A stretch of 64,000 bases of DNA, taken from IMG/VR virus record IMGVR_UViG_3300006065_000002. One strand, given 5' to 3'. The notes beneath the pieces were generated by a model. The model was not told where the DNA came from, did no database searches, and saw only the letters and a program-made list of their open reading frames with translations. This stretch comes from a virus. The position numbers and the translations under genes are program-made. Below are positions 45,661-58,617 of this stretch, in pieces (positions within the stretch are counted from its first letter, which is position 1; each line of letters starts with the position of its first letter).

Positions 45661-45815
45661 TATGTTAGATAATGATGTTCTAATTACAGCCTTTTTATCC
45701 ATATCATTTATATTTAATATAGAATATTTACCAATCTTAATAAGTTTTATCTGTTAAGTCAAGTTTAGTAGTTCTAATCTCACACTACATATACACCCAA
45801 CCGTTATAGGAAATT

Positions 45816-46031
45816 TTATTTTTTCCCACGCTCAATTACAACATCCAACTTATCAAGAAGCGACATTATACTATCTAATCTTTTACCATTTGAGTAAGTC
45901 AACAATTCGGGGTCAATCTTATCTAATTCTTCTTTTGATAAGTTTTTAGATAGTTGTATCAATTCTTCTTCCTCAAATACATTTGCTTCAAGGGTTCTTC
46001 TTTTTTCAAGTAATTCAGCAAATCTGCTCAT
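45816..46031 (-). CDS. Cassette hypothetical protein
   Basis: 71 aa, between the 45803 and 46081 termini. Confidence 0.7.
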   Translation of the reverse strand: MSRFAELLEKRRTLEANVFEEEELIQLSKNLSKEELDKIDPELLTYSNGKRLDSIMSLLDKLDVVIERGKK

Positions 46032-46074
46032 AATTAAATTTGTTTAAGCCAACCCACAAAAAAATAAAACTATC

Positions 46075-46169
46075 CTATAACAAGCGGTTGGCAATATGCC
46101 ACAGGATAGTGCGTGTATTGAAATTAAATCCGTTGAAGTGGCACATCGCCAACCGCTCCAACGTTATGA
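46075..46169 (-). repeat. attC-like site
   Basis: ATAAC-AGCGGTTGGC...GCCAACCGCT-CCAAC-GTTAT. Confidence 0.8.
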
Positions 46170-46313
46170 ACAATAAACCCAACACACAATCCCAACAAAT
46201 ACAATTATACCAAACGATATTAACATCCAATTTGGTATTTTATGATAACCACATTCAAAACTAACTCGTTCCTCTTTAGGAACATTTGGTATAATTCTTT
46301 TTTTACTGTTCAT
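46164..46313 (-). CDS. 49 aa single-TM cassette peptide (not in ORF track)
   Basis: MNSKKRIIP...FGIIVFVGIVCWVYCS*; ATG directly after GTT, TAA inside the TAAC box. Confidence 0.6.
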   Translation of the reverse strand: MNSKKRIIPNVPKEERVSFECGYHKIPNWMLISFGIIVFVGIVCWVYCS

Positions 46314-46406
46314 AACAAAGTGTATAAGTAATGTGGCTAAATAAGTTTATCTGTAAAGTTGAAAGTATGTGCAAAGCCACACTACACATACACTCAACCG
46401 TTATGC
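46310..46406 (-). repeat. attC-like site
   Basis: AGTGTAT..TGTGGCT / AGCCACA..ATACACT. Confidence 0.8.
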
Positions 46407-46557
46407 ACAATTGCTTTTTAAGTTATACGTATAATTTGAAATTTTGTTACAAGCAACTGTGCATAACAGCAAATATAACCAATGCTATCAGTGCTTCGTA
46501 GTAAAGTTTGTGTAAGTTTAACCATAATTTTTATTTTTTTCTCCCAATCGCACAAAT

Positions 46558-47106
46558 TTAAGAATAAATATTGTTTGAATCACTAAATTTAGTATTTTTA
46601 ATTGATTTAATTTGGTTTGGTTTTGTTGCAATTATCACATTTTCCTTTTCCCCAAATCTATCATGTTTTAATATTGCACCATCATTTGATGTGTTTATAT
46701 ATTCACCACCAACATTTACTTTATAAGTTGGGTTTCTTAAATTTATAAAAACTGCTAATTCTTTATCACCATAATTTGAATAACCGTACCTATCATCAGA
46801 AAAGTAGAATAAATTACCTCCAATAAATCCTTTCTTATAACTACCCTTCGTATTATCAAATTCTTCAAAATCAGCAAAAGTTCTGTGATAAACAACTAAA
46901 GGTTCGCCATTTTCATCAACTACTTTACTTGAACTATTTGGATTTTTCTCCCAATCACCAAACCAATCTTTAAACTCAGGAGTTCTAACCAATTTATACA
47001 ATTCTGATGTTAAATTGCTTTTATTACCATTTGGTGCTAATAGCGTTTCATTCTGTTCATTCAAATATTTACGTATAGTAGTTTTTATAAATTTTTTCAA
47101 TTCCAT
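46558..47106 (-). CDS. Leader-tagged ADP-ribosyltransferase-like (ART-PolyVal-type) protein
   Basis: MELKKFIKTTIRKYLNE; FKDWFGDW, VVDENGEPLVVYHRT, FYFS, VFINLRNP. Confidence 0.7.
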   Translation of the reverse strand: MELKKFIKTTIRKYLNEQNETLLAPNGNKSNLTSELYKLVRTPEFKDWFGDWEKNPNSSSKVVDENGEPLVVYHRTFADFEEFDNTKGSYKKGFIGGNLFYFSDDRYGYSNYGDKELAVFINLRNPTYKVNVGGEYINTSNDGAILKHDRFGEKENVIIATKPNQIKSIKNTKFSDSNNIYS

Positions 47107-47222
47107 ATTATTAAATAGTTTTATTATATATAAATATTCAAATTTTAAATTTCCTTCCCACAAAAATAAAACAAAAAGGTTTCGTTCTTCGTAGGTAGTT
47201 TTTTAGTAGATTTCTGCACAGC

Positions 47223-55319: not shown

Positions 55320-55399
55320 GTAAGTGTTCCGTTCATCCTTCTAATCAACATTTCAGTTGAAAATTTTAAAAGAAAAATCCTACGCACAAATATAGTAAA

Positions 55400-55813
55400 T
55401 TAATTTGAATAATCAAAATCATATTTTACTATAATATTTTTTGGTATTGTATCTAAATACGCAACAGAACCCCATATATCTAAACTTTCAATCACCTTTT
55501 CTTTATCGGTAGTCGCTTTATTCCAACCATACTTATTTAAAATATAATCATCATCCCAAGTTAATTTATTCAAATCTAATTTTGTAACATCAATCCACAA
55601 TCTAACCAAAGGTTTATATCCATAACTTTCTTCATCTTCATAGTATTCATCCATAATATCCATTAAAGATTGTGGTAAATTCGCTTTGTAAAGTGATTGT
55701 GATGTTGTTGATTCAAAAACATCCATTGACCAATGTTTTTTTCCCTTTTCAATAAATAATTTTTCTTCATCAGATAAAGTATTTAAAATTTCATTTATAT
55801 CAAAAGTTTTCAT
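55400..55813 (-). CDS. Cassette hypothetical protein
   Basis: 137 aa; shares its trailer with the cassettes at 51621 and 53288. Confidence 0.7.
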   Translation of the reverse strand: MKTFDINEILNTLSDEEKLFIEKGKKHWSMDVFESTTSQSLYKANLPQSLMDIMDEYYEDEESYGYKPLVRLWIDVTKLDLNKLTWDDDYILNKYGWNKATTDKEKVIESLDIWGSVAYLDTIPKNIIVKYDFDYSN

Positions 55814-55912
55814 AAATAAAATATATATTAATATTAAATATTTTATAGTATAACTTACTGTTTTCCTTTTTATTAATCTTTAGTTAATATTATAACGTGT
55901 TGTGTGTAATAG

Positions 55913-56128
55913 CTACGCCTTTGCTATTTTGCAACTCCACCGCCAAAATTTTTGAAGGTTATCAAACCAAATGTCAATTTCATCAGCTATCCATCCTTCG
56001 CCACTTAATAGTTTCTGTATATCAGCTTCTTTAGGTTCTAATCCTTCGCCACTTCCAATACTTGTACCTTCTGCCCACATTTGGTGTGCTTGGTCAAAAA
56101 TTTCTGTATGTTCTCTATCTACTGTCAT
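55913..56128 (-). CDS. Cassette hypothetical protein
   Basis: Matched termini at 55899 and 56161. Confidence 0.6.
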   Translation of the reverse strand: MTVDREHTEIFDQAHQMWAEGTSIGSGEGLEPKEADIQKLLSGEGWIADEIDIWFDNLQKFWRWSCKIAKA

Positions 56129-56154
56129 TTTTCTTCTATTTAAACCGCTACTAC

Positions 56155-56285
56155 ACACAACAATGCGTATAAGTAATAGCGGGGTTTGTGTTAATATTTA
56201 AGTTCATTTCTTTTTTTTAATCTTTGTGGTTAAACGAAAAGTAGTCGCTTTTTATCTGCTACTACTCATACGCTCAACGTTAGAA
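56155..56285 (-). repeat. attC-like site
   Basis: GCGTATAAGTAATAGC / GCTACTACTCATACGC. Confidence 0.8.
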
Positions 56286-56292
56286 GTAATAA

Positions 56293-56664
56293 TTACAGAT
56301 TATCCATAAAGTTCTTCTGTATTTTTTTAAAATATACTTTAATTTGATCAACATATCTGTTAGTCATAAAATAAGATTTTTCACCTGTTATTATTTTCCA
56401 TCTACCCTCTAATTCAATAGTTTCTGTAACATTTCCCATCGGGTCAACTTTTTCCAATCTTATTTTATTAGAATTACTACTTATAACATCAGATTCATTT
56501 TGTTTTTCATCGGAAATAATAATATTGTAATCATCTATAAGTTCTTGTAATGCTTCAGGTGTAAATATTAAATCAATGTTGTTATCACATTTAATCATAA
56601 TATTTTTTCCTAACCTTGATGTTTTAACATCATCTTTTTCTACGTTAATTAAAATTCGTGACAT
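56293..56664 (-). CDS. Hypothetical protein (last cassette)
   Basis: 123 aa; degenerate half-site at 56678-56710. Confidence 0.65.
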   Translation of the reverse strand: MSRILINVEKDDVKTSRLGKNIMIKCDNNIDLIFTPEALQELIDDYNIIISDEKQNESDVISSNSNKIRLEKVDPMGNVTETIELEGRWKIITGEKSYFMTNRYVDQIKVYFKKIQKNFMDNL

Positions 56665-58617
56665 AATTTTTTACAGTTTATAACAAGGTATATGTAAAAT
56701 ACCTCATAAAGTTTCCATTAATTTTTTAAATTTTGTTTAGAGTATTTTTCCTCGCGTCTTCGTTCAATTGCTTTTTTTATCATTGTTCTTGCCCAATCAG
56801 TTGAAGGGACACTTTCGTCTTCGTGAGCTTCCCCCCACACAACATCTACCAAGTGAAACAGTAATCGTCTGTCAATTCCTTTCATATTGCCGTCCGTTTC
56901 TAGTTTCCTTTTGCATATTTTCACCACATATTTCACATACATTTCTGAATGTCATTACCATACCGTCTGATGTTCTTACTTTATGGTCACAAACCGAACC
57001 TCTAACTTTGTGTAAATGCAATGCTTGTTCGGTTATTTTTTCGTTTATTTTTTCCTTTTTCATGGTTTCCTTTTTATTTTATACTATAAACAATTATTAT
57101 CGAAAGAAATATAAATAAAATCTAAAAATAGAATATTTTTTTTTTAAAATCTTCTGATGTGAAAAATGTAATATAATTTGTACCCAATATTATTAAAATT
57201 AAAAACAGTAATAATATGTAAACAATTATTTTATTAAATAATGAAAATTCATTCATGTTATTTATCAATTAAATTTATAGTTTCATGTTTTTTATATGAT
57301 TTTAATTTCCATGTATATATTCCATTTTCTTTTATTTTTTCAAAAACCAAATAATAATAGTTAATAGTAATATGTGTTTTCTGAAATAGTAGGTAGAGTT
57401 TTTTTAAACAAAAAAGTTTCTCTATTTTTTTTTGTTGTAAATTTATCATTTACATAAACTGATACAAAATTTTTATCACATGTATTTGGGTCAGGTAAAG
57501 ATTTTCTTGCTTCAGAAACCACTTCGTCTATTAATTTTAAAAAACTCATATTAATATTATTATTTTATTTCATCCAAAATGAATTCACATAGTTCTTTTA
57601 ATTGTTCTGTATTTGTATCAAGTGATTTTTCATTAATATCATTATCCAAGTATCAGATGGTTCTTTATCTGCCATCATAACTTCATGGTCTTTTAGTTCT
57701 AGTGTTCTAATAGTACCTTTTGGTGTATCAATAAATGATGCTGTAATTGAATATTGAAAACCACTTGATTTTCTCATCGTAATTGTTTTTACTCTCATAA
57801 CTTAATTCCATTTAAACGGGTTTTCCAAGTTTTTAAAAAAACCATAAAATCCATACATTAACAAAAGTATTGGAATTAAAATAATTAAAATTATATAAGA
57901 AAGTGGATTAAAGGGGTTTAATCTATAGGCAGTGAAATAACCTTTACCTAATCGTTTTAAACCTTTTTTATTTCTTTCTTCATTAGAAACAAATTCAATT
58001 ACTTTAATTCTTTTTAATAATTCAAACATATTTTTTTTTTCAAATATACAACTAAATTTTGAAACTACCAAATAAATTAAATTTGAGAAACACACCATAT
58101 TCTTCCATCTTTACATCTAACTATCATATCGTTATGTTGATGTTCAACACCTTCCTCAAAAGCCAAATGTTTAATAATTGCTCTTTTGCTAACACCAATA
58201 TATATTTTATCTGTTCCTTCTATTGGGTCACCATTCGATTCGGCTTTCCAAACATTGTATTTGTGTTGTGTTTTCATATCATAAATTATATATGTATAAA
58301 CAAAACACAATTAACCCAAGATTTACAATAAAACTATATGGTTCATTAAAAAACCATGCAATAATAGTAAATAAAAATGAGTATGCGGAGTGTAAGATAA
58401 AAAGTAAACCTATTATCCAACCGTCATCAGTTGTTAGATATCCTAGAAACCATAATGGATATAAAAAAAATAAAATAGTATAATATTAACATAGTTTTTT
58501 ATTTTTTAAAATAAACCATAACCAAATTGTACATTTAATTCAACATTCCACCACCCATTAATTGCAGGTATTGATTCTAATTCTGATTTTTTAAACGAAG
58601 CTTCTTCTAAAACTAAA

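Follow-up and report, generated by a model that had tools for sequence, protein, structure and literature searches.

In classical integrons, the integrase IntI contacts extrahelical bases of its sites through a specific insert. A different route of gene shuffling is followed in T4-type phages by PeSLs (promoter-early stem-loops), which are exchanged by homologous recombination; Arbiol et al. in 2010 and Repoila et al. in 1994 reportedly described these "mobile regulatory cassettes", as well as the internal-protein locus of such phages. We know of no PeSLs with AAC/GTT cores, cassette-specific inverted ends or a dedicated tyrosine recombinase. CALINs are attC-site clusters that have no integron integrase. 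Examples with a minimum of two attC sites, among them N6_N4 methyltransferase cassettes, are on record in phages, one of them in a Polaribacter phage; they were detected with the canonical attC model, and of the six sites assayed, IntI1 recombined five (Qi et al. 2023, PMC9892861). IS-related fragments are frequent beside bacterial CALINs (PMC4889954). Here, we describe a region at 45.8–56.7 kb of a large phage genome sequence (hereinafter the window, the whole 64 kb stretch analysed) that most likely belongs, as a truncated member without a recombinase, to a widespread family of integron-like gene-cassette arrays. In Bacteroidota-type phages and Bacteroidota chromosomes, where the family is found, such arrays adjoin a simpler, Xer-type recombinase that the window lacks; our literature search retrieved no paper describing this array system.

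Array layout and site census

Within the array, about 18 minus-strand ORFs are interleaved with 13 complete hairpin sites bounded by AAC...GTT and about six partial sites (Table 1). The first-pass annotation had listed 13 complete sites, all of which could be assigned AAC..GTT coordinates, and some seven half-sites; partial sites indeed exist, but they number six. The stop codons that it had placed within a TAAC box, at 46164 and 55023, were confirmed as well. On the plus strand, each site reads YYYAAC, a spacer of 1–3 nt (mostly AA), an arm of ~20 nt, a loop, a second arm of ~20 nt, a spacer of 4–6 nt (mostly CAACC) and GTTRRR. The previously noted geometry was confirmed: spacers of 5 versus 2 nt, arms of ~20 bp, no bulged bases and, on the gene strand, G.T wobbles.

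A strict scan of the 64 kb, requiring at least 13–14 Watson-Crick arm pairs in addition to the boxes and spacers, recovered 11 of the 13 sites, all in a single orientation and within 46.0–56.3 kb, with zero matches in the rest of the window or in reverse orientation; the chance level was a mean of 0.33 matches (30 dinucleotide-preserving shuffles). The two weaker sites missed by the scan are site 5, which is short and AT-rich, and site 11, which has extra arm mismatches. A covariance model (CM) built on seven sites, site 11 among them, recovers site 5 and misses site 4, the arm sequence of which is very different. As for the partial sites, the one at the left end has an arm matching that of site 6 and scores 19.8 bits with the CM over positions 45732–45812; the isolated R'' box is the complement of 46400–46416, with which the same tiny cassette, devoid of an ORF, begins; and the GTTATAAGTA that follows the hairpin-less AAC|GTT junction complements TACTTATAAC ahead of site 5.

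Table 1 Recombination-site-like features and cargo ORFs of the array (window coordinates)
Feature	Coordinates	Strand	Evidence and remarks
Truncated site, left (recombinase-proximal) array end	45789..45805	+	3' arm, CAACC spacer and GTT (45803-45805) left
ORF, 71 aa	45816..46031	-	ORF list
Site 1, 87 nt	46079..46165	+	Strict scan, CM; own arm sequence GCGGTTGGCAATATGCCAC
ORF, 49 aa	46164..46313	-	ORF list; stop codon in TAAC box
Site 2, 89 nt	46314..46402	+	Strict scan, CM
Isolated R'' box with terminal AAC	46451..46467	+	17-nt complement
ORF, 183 aa, ART-PolyVal ADP-ribosyltransferase domain	46558..47109	-	PF18760, E 9e-14; leader MELKKFIKTTIRKYLNEQ
Site 3, 86 nt	47227..47312	+	Strict scan, CM; common arm type GGTGTATAAGAAAGTTTGCT
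ORF, 88 aa	47323..47589	-	ORF list
Site 4, 124 nt	47609..47732	+	Unrelated arm sequence; geometry and mismatch positions unchanged
ORF, 49 aa	47666..47815	-	ORF list
AAC|GTT junction without hairpin	47838..47843	+	Read from sequence
ORF, 74 aa	47866..48090	-	ORF list
Site 5, 63 nt, weak	48119..48181	+	CM, 25 bits
Broken leader-tagged gene, frame interrupted	48230..48906	-	ORF list; start MELRKFIATTIREYLNEQ
Site 6, 122 nt	49029..49150	+	Strict scan, CM
ORF, N6/N4 DNA methyltransferase	49161..50144	-	PF01555, E 4e-43
Site 7, 86 nt	50073..50158	+	Strict scan, CM
ORF, 408 aa	50242..51468	-	No family (family search); leader MELRKFIATTIREYLNEQ
Site 8, 87 nt	51537..51623	+	Strict scan, CM
ORF, 160 aa	51698..52180	-	Weak TPR match, under Pfam cut-off; leader MKDLKQFIKTTIREFLNEN
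Degenerate site	52298..52358	+	R'' and 5' arm intact, 3' arm replaced; GTT at 52356-52358
ORF, 178 aa, leader-tagged	52386..52922	-	Cassette 94% identical in IMG/VR locus L092
Site 9, 86 nt	53036..53121	+	Strict scan, CM
Right half-site (3' arm, spacer, GTT)	53262..53290	+	Sequence of right half of site 7
ORF, 111 aa	53316..53651	-	ORF list
ORF, 235 aa	53602..54309	-	Weak match to PARP-catalytic; 855 nt shared with L019 at 86% identity
Site 10, 85 nt	54433..54517	+	Strict scan, CM
ORF, DUF7448	54529..54893	-	PF24240, E 1e-32; ATG 54891-54893
Site 11, 86 nt	54939..55024	+	CM (training site); arm mismatches above other sites
ORF, 75 aa	55023..55250	-	ORF list; stop codon in TAAC box
Site 12, 113 nt	55203..55315	+	Strict scan, CM
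ORF, 137 aa	55400..55813	-	No family (family search)
ORF, ~71 aa	55913..56128	-	ORF list
Site 13, 123 nt	56159..56281	+	Strict scan, CM
ORF, 123 aa	56293..56664	-	No family (family search)
Left half-site (R'' box, 5' arm start), distal array end	56682..56710	+	Read from sequence

Arm covariation and the folding strand

The hairpin arms covary: in a set of 337 distinct sites, which contain 202 distinct arms, Watson-Crick pairing is seen at 83% of the arm positions, compared with 31% when partners are shuffled. Of 374 sites, 333 have a fixed A.C mismatch, as read on the plus-type strand (G.T on the gene strand), at arm position 13, and 236 have one of the same type at arm position 8 or 10. Because these two fixed odd positions are G.T wobbles there, the minus (gene) strand is predicted to fold best, with greater stability at 11 of the 13 window sites. 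Extrahelical bases were not found in these sites. Each site is most likely an attC analogue that would fold as a single-stranded DNA hairpin, with the crossover probably falling at or beside the conserved triplet (G|TT on the plus strand, which reads AA|C on the strand that folds).

Compatibility of the odd positions with G.U pairing is confined to the gene strand, as would be expected if the hairpins, placed between phage genes that are transcribed independently, worked mainly in RNA, as terminators or insulators, as sites of RNase III-type processing or as stabilisers of mRNA, with AAC/GTT being the base of the stem. Some sites are followed by a small GC hairpin and a T-run (e.g., 50026–50039), and a related hairpin at 31544–31610, which precedes a leader-tagged gene at 31.5 kb, has kept the wobbles and lost AAC/GTT, hinting at an additional role of the hairpins, perhaps in RNA. 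However, an RNA function predicts pairing between the flanks of one site, whereas the flank pairs instead across the neighbouring ORF, at its far end (see below), and it explains neither the sharp homology breakpoints at GTT, nor the presence of the same cassette behind a hairpin and behind a hairpin-less junction, nor why a tyrosine recombinase is fixed in position and orientation in related loci. We thus consider it very unlikely as the explanation of the array; a secondary RNA role of the hairpins is possible.

Cassette ends, breakpoints and polarity

In the window, 6 of the 12 adjacent site pairs display 6–7 contiguous complementary nucleotides beyond GTT/AAC, and the flanks of any single site are complementary over just 0–3 nt. 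The same pattern is seen in 97 IMG/VR loci, where end complementarity of at least 6 nt occurs in 62% of 240 adjacent pairs, a figure that drops to 2% when pairs are drawn at random and to 1.6% for the flanks of one site. Homology blocks shared with more than 100 IMG/VR phage contigs end just beyond GTT. In the window, 72 of 133 blocks have an end no more than 5 nt from a GTT, and no block ends that close to an AAC. Among non-redundant loci, ~800 hairpin-covering blocks end 0–4 nt beyond GTT and almost none at AAC. Loci L022 and L061 share one cassette at 100% identity along 732 nt; it starts exactly at GTT in each, preceded by a hairpin in L061 and by ATATATAATA without a hairpin in L022. In another pair, L056 and L089, the flanks are 100% identical, the cassettes between them differ, and the right-hand breakpoint is the GTT of a site.

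These breakpoints overturn one element of the first-pass annotation, which had followed the classical cassette model and put the site of each ORF downstream: the hairpin moves with the ORF that lies downstream of it on the gene strand. Consequently, the canonical "top strand" is the plus strand of the window and the genes are on the folding "bottom" strand, as are the cargo ORFs in 195 of 200 inter-site intervals (median interval, 467 nt). On the plus strand, a cassette would comprise TT, a 6–7-nt box, the antisense cargo gene, the complementary box, AAC, the hairpin and G; on the gene strand, the order would be hairpin, 5' region and ORF.

Several cassettes share a long conserved block that runs from the hairpin through the 5' region into an 18-aa leader, a likeness to PeSL-type regulatory modules which raises the question of whether ordinary homologous recombination between hairpin/promoter/leader repeats, with no dedicated site-specific enzyme, could account for the array. 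The occurrence of one hairpin type with several different end boxes, the sharing of the segment B cargo between L056 and L089 without its hairpin, and the lack of a recombinase in about one-third to one-half of the large array-bearing contigs are all compatible with such a process. Nevertheless, breakpoints would then be expected across the whole repeat, but they cluster 0–4 nt from GTT; cassette-specific 6–7-nt inverted ends are not predicted; sites with unrelated arms still share geometry and mismatch positions; and the linkage to a recombinase is left unexplained. This scenario is quite improbable for the array, although segment B and the varied end boxes indicate that the repeats also undergo homologous exchange or gene conversion. 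The proposed "shufflable library" is demonstrated for the family, in which contigs differ cassette by cassette, and not for this phage; its array is truncated at the recombinase-proximal end. Neither excision circles nor clean deletion junctions were seen in Logan contigs, which break at repeats.

The associated recombinase and relation to known systems

In 21 related loci, a Xer-like tyrosine recombinase of 265–290 aa is encoded 240–910 nt from the nearest site; both the array end that it occupies and its orientation are fixed. All sites but two fall on the N-terminal side of the recombinase, and in 73 of 81 cases the plus-type strand of the sites is opposite to its gene. All of the catalytic residues (R, K, H, R, H and Y) are fully conserved, and in 14 of 16 loci the start of the recombinase is preceded, ~60 nt upstream, by a conserved, hairpin-less AAC|TATNATATAT junction that looks like attI. 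In these relatives, the enzyme, encoded at the plus-strand 5' end of the array and directed away from the array beside the attI-like junction, is the probable agent of cassette recombination. It is about equally close to the XerA, IntI, XerC and XerD models, scores under the IntI cut-offs and lacks the IntI-specific insert (33 aa versus 81 in VchIntIA), which, given sites devoid of extrahelical bases, points to a variant rather than a canonical integron. Thus, both the integron-like reading and the "variant site class" suggested at first pass are borne out, the former by the cross-ORF end complementarity, the GTT breakpoints and the fixed-end recombinase of relatives.

As previously noted for integrases, the 64-kb window contains no recombinase of the associated family, and no called gene in the 10 kb beyond its right end has a recombinase Pfam family. 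The left end of the array is a truncated hairpin beside a TnpB fragment, so that, with its recombinase-proximal end truncated and no recombinase present, the array is CALIN-like. The recombinase-bearing end was presumably deleted, in which case any cassette movement here would require a recombinase in trans, which might be provided from elsewhere in the genome, by a co-infecting phage or by the host. No array occupies this place in the nearest relatives of the flanking genes (79% amino-acid identity).

A classical CALIN, in which ordinary attC sites captured from an integron of bacteria would be recombined by a canonical IntI of the host, would fit the R''-L''...L'-R' architecture and the AAC/GTT cores, and phage precedents with at least two attC sites, including N6_N4 methyltransferase cassettes, are known (PMC9892861). 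Yet extrahelical bases are absent, the spacers are asymmetric (2 versus 5 nt), the gene strand is opposite to that of classical cassettes, and the array-linked enzyme of relatives lacks the IntI insert and scores under the IntI cut-offs, making this origin extremely doubtful. What the integron-like array does share with CALINs is a co-oriented attC-like cluster in a phage with no integrase nearby, an orphan N6_N4 DNA methyltransferase cassette and, as beside bacterial CALINs, an IS-related (TnpB) fragment at the truncated end; it differs from the reported phage CALINs in site geometry, gene polarity and associated enzyme. With PeSLs and the internal-protein locus, it has in common a hyperplastic phage region of small genes, a stem-loop with expression signals ahead of each gene and several proteins with a common N-terminal leader.

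The resemblance to sedentary chromosomal integrons (IntI, attI and attC, as in the VCR array of Vibrio cholerae) extends to small, mostly single-ORF cassettes (median spacing here, 467 nt); imperfect palindromes of ~60–130 nt with AAC/GTT cores, in which structure is conserved and arm sequence hardly so and which are homogeneous within one array; pairing of the R'' box of each cassette with R' at its own start; G|TT breakpoints; and, at the array's 5' end, a tyrosine recombinase that diverges from the top strand of the sites and adjoins a hairpin-less junction. Unlike integrons, the system has a recombinase without the IntI-specific insert in relatives, two fixed A.C/G.T positions in place of extrahelical bases, spacers of 2 and 5 nt with R boxes of 9–10 bp, genes on the folding (bottom) strand, a conserved upstream block shared by several genes instead of one common promoter, and a phage as its carrier.

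Anatomy and spread of the hairpin sites

All substantial ORFs between 45.8 and 56.7 kb of the window lie on the minus strand, and between them stand 13 elements which, read on the plus strand, follow one common plan: YYYAAC, a spacer of 1–3 nt (mostly AA), an arm of ~20 nt, a loop of 20–80 nt, the complementary arm, a spacer of 4–6 nt (mostly CAACC), and GTTRRR. A strict scan recovered 11 such sites, all within this array and in a single orientation, with none in the other 53 kb of the window and none in the opposite orientation; shuffled sequence yielded 0.33 matches on average. 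The arms of some sites (46079, 47227, and 47609) are wholly unlike in sequence, and the geometry is constant. This is the architecture of attC sites, an R''(..AAC)-L''...L'-R'(GTT..) imperfect palindrome conserved in structure and variable in sequence. At arm position 13, A stands opposite C in all 11 scanned sites, as it does at position 8–10 in 10 of them; such a pair is an A.C mismatch on the plus strand and a G.T wobble on the gene (minus) strand. Also seen in the sites is the rest of the variant geometry that the first-pass annotation had described together with the G.T pairs on the gene strand, namely the lack of bulged (extrahelical) bases and the unequal unpaired spacers of 2 and 5 nt. 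Six partial sites within the array mark deletions. No Rfam family covers the sites. RNAalifold applied to a MAFFT alignment of all 13 returned no structure, owing to misalignment of the variable loops, and a covariance model built from seven sites with the structure set by hand was too sequence-specific, missing the site at 47609–47732.

The sites belong to a large natural family, represented in more than 100 viral contigs and in cultured Flavobacteriia. Searching IMG/VR contigs for an exact 24-mer of one site gave 101 stretches with lengths of 7–465 kb, and a scan of 97 such loci yielded 374 sites in arrays of up to 14, with the position-13 A.C pair in 89% of the 374. The 337 distinct sites comprise 202 distinct arms, with each of the four Watson-Crick pair types represented at almost every position, and their arms pair over 83% with true partners versus 31% with shuffled ones. 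Site lengths are bimodal, at ~85 and ~120 nt. The same site class is found beside a short Xer-like tyrosine recombinase in 21 IMG/VR loci, in further large contigs, and in Bacteroidota chromosomes.

Cassette ends, breakpoints, and polarity

The 6–7 nt past GTT at one site and the 6–7 nt ahead of AAC at the next are mutually complementary, these boxes being the two ends of a single cassette, whereas the flanks of one site pair over 0–3 nt only. Such complementarity links 6 of the 12 neighbouring site pairs of the window, the others being interrupted by partial sites with matching boxes (for example, a 17-nt match between 46400 and 46451). Of 240 neighbouring pairs from IMG/VR loci, 62% are complementary over at least 6 nt, compared to 1.6% within sites and 2% of random pairs, and the length of the match peaks sharply at 7 nt. 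In classical integron cassettes, recombination at G|TT makes every R' a hybrid, and complementarity of R'' to the R' of its own cassette, the signature of such cassettes, is found here as well.

Homology blocks that contain a hairpin and are shared by unrelated contigs end 0–4 nt past GTT (~800 ends) and almost never at AAC; in the window, GTT is the end point of 72 of 133 homology blocks, and AAC of none. Loci L022 and L061 share a 732-nt cassette, 100% identical and beginning exactly at GTT in both, which stands behind a hairpin in L061 and behind ATATATAATA without a hairpin in L022; the pairs L010/L023, L026/L056, and L092/window follow a similar pattern. Loci L056 and L089, in turn, are 100% identical over two flanks (659 and 640 nt) that enclose a single cassette of 838 nt in L056 and two cassettes (1,729 nt) in L089; the right breakpoint is the GTT of a site and the left one adjoins the start of each first cassette. 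The end boxes, the GTT breakpoints, the L022/L061 cassette, and the L056/L089 difference argue for recombination beyond mere structure; a hairpin role purely at the RNA level is unlikely as the main explanation, and the hairpins may have a secondary one besides. Homologous shuffling, as at the promoter-early stem-loops (PeSL) of T4-type phages, is likewise unlikely to be the main process behind blocks that end at GTT and almost never at AAC, and some homologous exchange within the repeats may accompany site-specific recombination. In Logan contigs of one hot-spring sample, the array is broken at repeats, three listed joints having sides of <30 nt; two loose contig ends fall 2–3 nt past GTT (45807 and 51626) and possibly belong to other phages in the sample.

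Homology is continuous from the leader and 5' region of a gene across the hairpin and ends at the far GTT. Because it runs uninterrupted to this point, the hairpin is part of the cassette whose ORF comes next on the gene strand, which corrects the first-pass placement of each site downstream of its ORF. The accompanying remark that some stop codons sit inside TAAC still holds, since the AA|C crossover comes after TAA. By integron convention, the plus strand of the window is the top strand, with the genes on the bottom strand. This placement holds for the ORFs of 18 of 18 window cassettes and for 195 of 200 intervals elsewhere, and conserved upstream blocks are located inside the cassettes. In canonical integrons, by contrast, cassette ORFs lie on the top strand and share a common Pc promoter. 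Folding free of mismatches is a property of the bottom strand, which is also the strand recombined in classical integrons.

Recombinases of the relatives and the state of the window array

Four of the five large site-bearing records (98–100% complete by CheckV) encode one tyrosine recombinase matching PF00589, with the gene directly adjoining the array in each of the four; the fifth, G002, retains only a 113-aa remnant. In G001 (IMGVR_UViG_3300023174_000033, a 465-kb phage), the match is in two pieces (13645–13818 and 14634–14702) ~800 nt apart, perhaps because an insertion or intron splits the gene. Homologues 35–100% identical occur in 21 short loci, which had been fetched solely for the 24-mer, and 8 of 17 further large contigs carry one copy each, with none in G011 (96% complete). 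All sites but two lie on the N-terminal side of the recombinase, the nearest 240–910 nt away, and their top strand is opposite to the recombinase gene in 73 of 81 cases, a layout equivalent to that of classical integrons (intI-attI-array). In 14 of 16 loci, the last cassette box, located ~60 nt before the recombinase start codon, is followed by AAC|TATNATATAT without a hairpin, a junction that is a candidate attI. No recombinase stands beside the hairpin-less junction of L022; near that array end, the locus carries a gene for a GIY-YIG-type endonuclease (8772–9506, minus strand). In the window, the attI-like motif is no more frequent than expected by chance.

The recombinases are 265–290 aa long, with R, K, H, R, H, and Y invariant. 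They score roughly equally, and below cut-off, against XerA/IntI (NF040815), IntI (TIGR02249; 156–158 bits, cut-off 265), XerD, and XerC. Alignment to VchIntIA (2a3v) is in two pieces and has 33 aa in place of the 81 of IntI, so the insert specific to IntI is lacking. Homologues ~40% identical, with the same sites upstream, are encoded by cultured Flagellimonas, Zobellia, Maribacter, Croceitalea, and Aquimarina, among them Flagellimonas okinawensis, Zobellia uliginosa DSM 2061, Zobellia russellii, and Maribacter spp.; the Flavobacteriia loci (L132, L155, L146, L137, L140, and others) have one to three same-class sites upstream of the recombinase. These cultured carriers would make the system testable at the bench.

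The window has a G+C content of ~25% and encodes 17 tRNAs (one a CUA suppressor), tmRNA, GOLLD RNA, phage-type auxiliary genes, a TnpB transposase, and a Dda-like helicase, with no structural gene in the 64 kb; its source is likely a 'huge phage'. Matches to GenBank phages are limited to the methyltransferase cassette and one 58-nt stretch, the nearest relatives are IMG/VR viral contigs, and the DNA was found in a single hot-spring metagenome sample, SRR5650826. The first-pass statement that the window has no IntI is borne out: neither tblastn nor a profile search of six-frame ORFs (best E 0.23) detected a tyrosine recombinase of the array-linked family, and no recombinase Pfam family is present among the genes called in the 10 kb past the right end of the window. 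At the left end of the array, where the recombinase would be expected, stands a hairpin cut inside its loop. Beyond it lies a 105-aa C-terminal TnpB fragment with a zinc finger and the RuvC-III motif, overlapped over ~140 nt by the 5' part of a full-length GOLLD match (176 bits). Leftward of the array, nucleotide homology to related contigs begins again at 45310, within the GOLLD match, and no array is present in these syntenic relatives of the Ro60/GOLLD region. A truncated remnant similar to a CALIN (a cluster of attC sites lacking an integron integrase) is the most fitting reading of the window array. For the window, the integron-like system would account for the hypervariable 11-kb block and place its loss of autonomy at a deletion at 45.3–45.8 kb.

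Coordinates of cassettes and other features in the window
Feature	Position	Strand	Remark
Leader-tagged cassette	46558–47109	minus	N-terminal leader
Leader-tagged cassette	48230–48906	minus	N-terminal leader; copy broken
Leader-tagged cassette	50242–51468	minus	N-terminal leader
Leader-tagged cassette	51698–52180	minus	N-terminal leader
Leader-tagged cassette	52386–52922	minus	N-terminal leader
Methyltransferase cassette	49161–50144	minus	92% identical pieces in a phage
Cut hairpin	45789–45805		left end of array
TnpB C-terminal fragment	45309–45626	minus	105 aa
GOLLD RNA match	45045–45451	minus	full-length
Solitary hairpin	31544–31610	minus	outside array

The cargo includes an ART-PolyVal ADP-ribosyltransferase, an N6/N4 DNA methyltransferase, and a DUF7448 protein, along with weak PARP and TPR matches; the remaining cassettes belong to no family. 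A leader of 18 aa (MELRKFIATTIREYLNEQ or a variant of it) and a conserved block upstream are common to at least five of the cassettes. The leader consensus, M(E/K)L(R/K)KFI(A/K)TTIRE(Y/F)LNE(Q/N), terminates in an L-x-E motif and resembles the capsid-targeting leaders of T4 internal proteins; by this analogy, the tagged cargo may be packaged and injected. We infer a role of the cargo in counter-defence or host takeover. Flavobacterium phage vB_FspS_mymlan6 (MN812227) matches pieces of the methyltransferase cassette at 92% identity, which points to a Flavobacteriia-type host range of the cassette pool. Reading TAG as a sense codon leaves the cassette ORFs materially unchanged. The solitary hairpin is of the same arm family, with G.T wobbles at the same positions and the AAC/GTT boxes lost (ATAG...TTTAT), and lies directly upstream of a leader-tagged gene (MKDLKQYIKTTIRE...) whose ORF starts near 31519; it may be a fossil cassette or hint at a second role of the hairpin.

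Proposed mechanism and class of the array

Integron recombination is held to rely on an IntI-specific domain that reads the extrahelical bases of attC. As far as sequence comparison can tell, the present family has every comparative signature of the integron reaction, with neither the IntI domain nor extrahelical bases. We propose, with chances that we regard as even, that a short Xer-like tyrosine recombinase without the IntI insert recombines folded single-stranded hairpins in integron fashion; that strand choice would be made through the two fixed G.T/A.C positions, which would replace the extrahelical bases; that the system would represent an independent or ancestral form of integron; that it would serve large Bacteroidota phages in storing and exchanging counter-defence genes, self-expressed and leader-tagged, such as ADP-ribosyltransferases and methyltransferases; and that recombinase-less arrays, including that of the window, would be cassette reservoirs mobilised in trans. 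If confirmed, this would provide a route for the origin of integrons from Xer recombinases, endow phages with a system dedicated to the capture of genes for host takeover and anti-defence, and reveal a whole branch missed by current integron finders, which demand the IntI insert.

Other repeat classes were considered and rejected: MITE or IS200/IS605 ends, given that there is no Y1 transposase, one hairpin per junction, and cassette-specific ends; and CRISPR or retron repeats, for which size and anatomy are wrong. CALINs and a few integrons in phages have been published (PMC9892861); our literature search retrieved no account of these sites as a class, of the recombinase platform lacking the insert, or of how abundant it is in large phages.

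With 13 co-oriented sites and no array-linked-family recombinase in 64 kb, the window array is a CALIN (two or more co-oriented attC sites lacking a nearby integron integrase) if variant sites are counted as attC. A classical CALIN served by IntI would share this organisation, and is unlikely as the main explanation. Canonical integrons have an IntI with the additional domain adjoining the array, which neither the window nor its relatives possess. In their attC sites, the L box contains extrahelical bases and the unpaired central spacer is close to symmetric, whereas the arms here are bulge-free, the spacers measure 2 and 5 nt, and the odd positions are A.C/G.T pairs in fixed places instead of bulges. 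Among arrays with a Xer-type recombinase, the relatives combine this site class with the short Xer-like enzyme and the window has the sites alone; we class it as a recombinase-less member of this integron-like variant.
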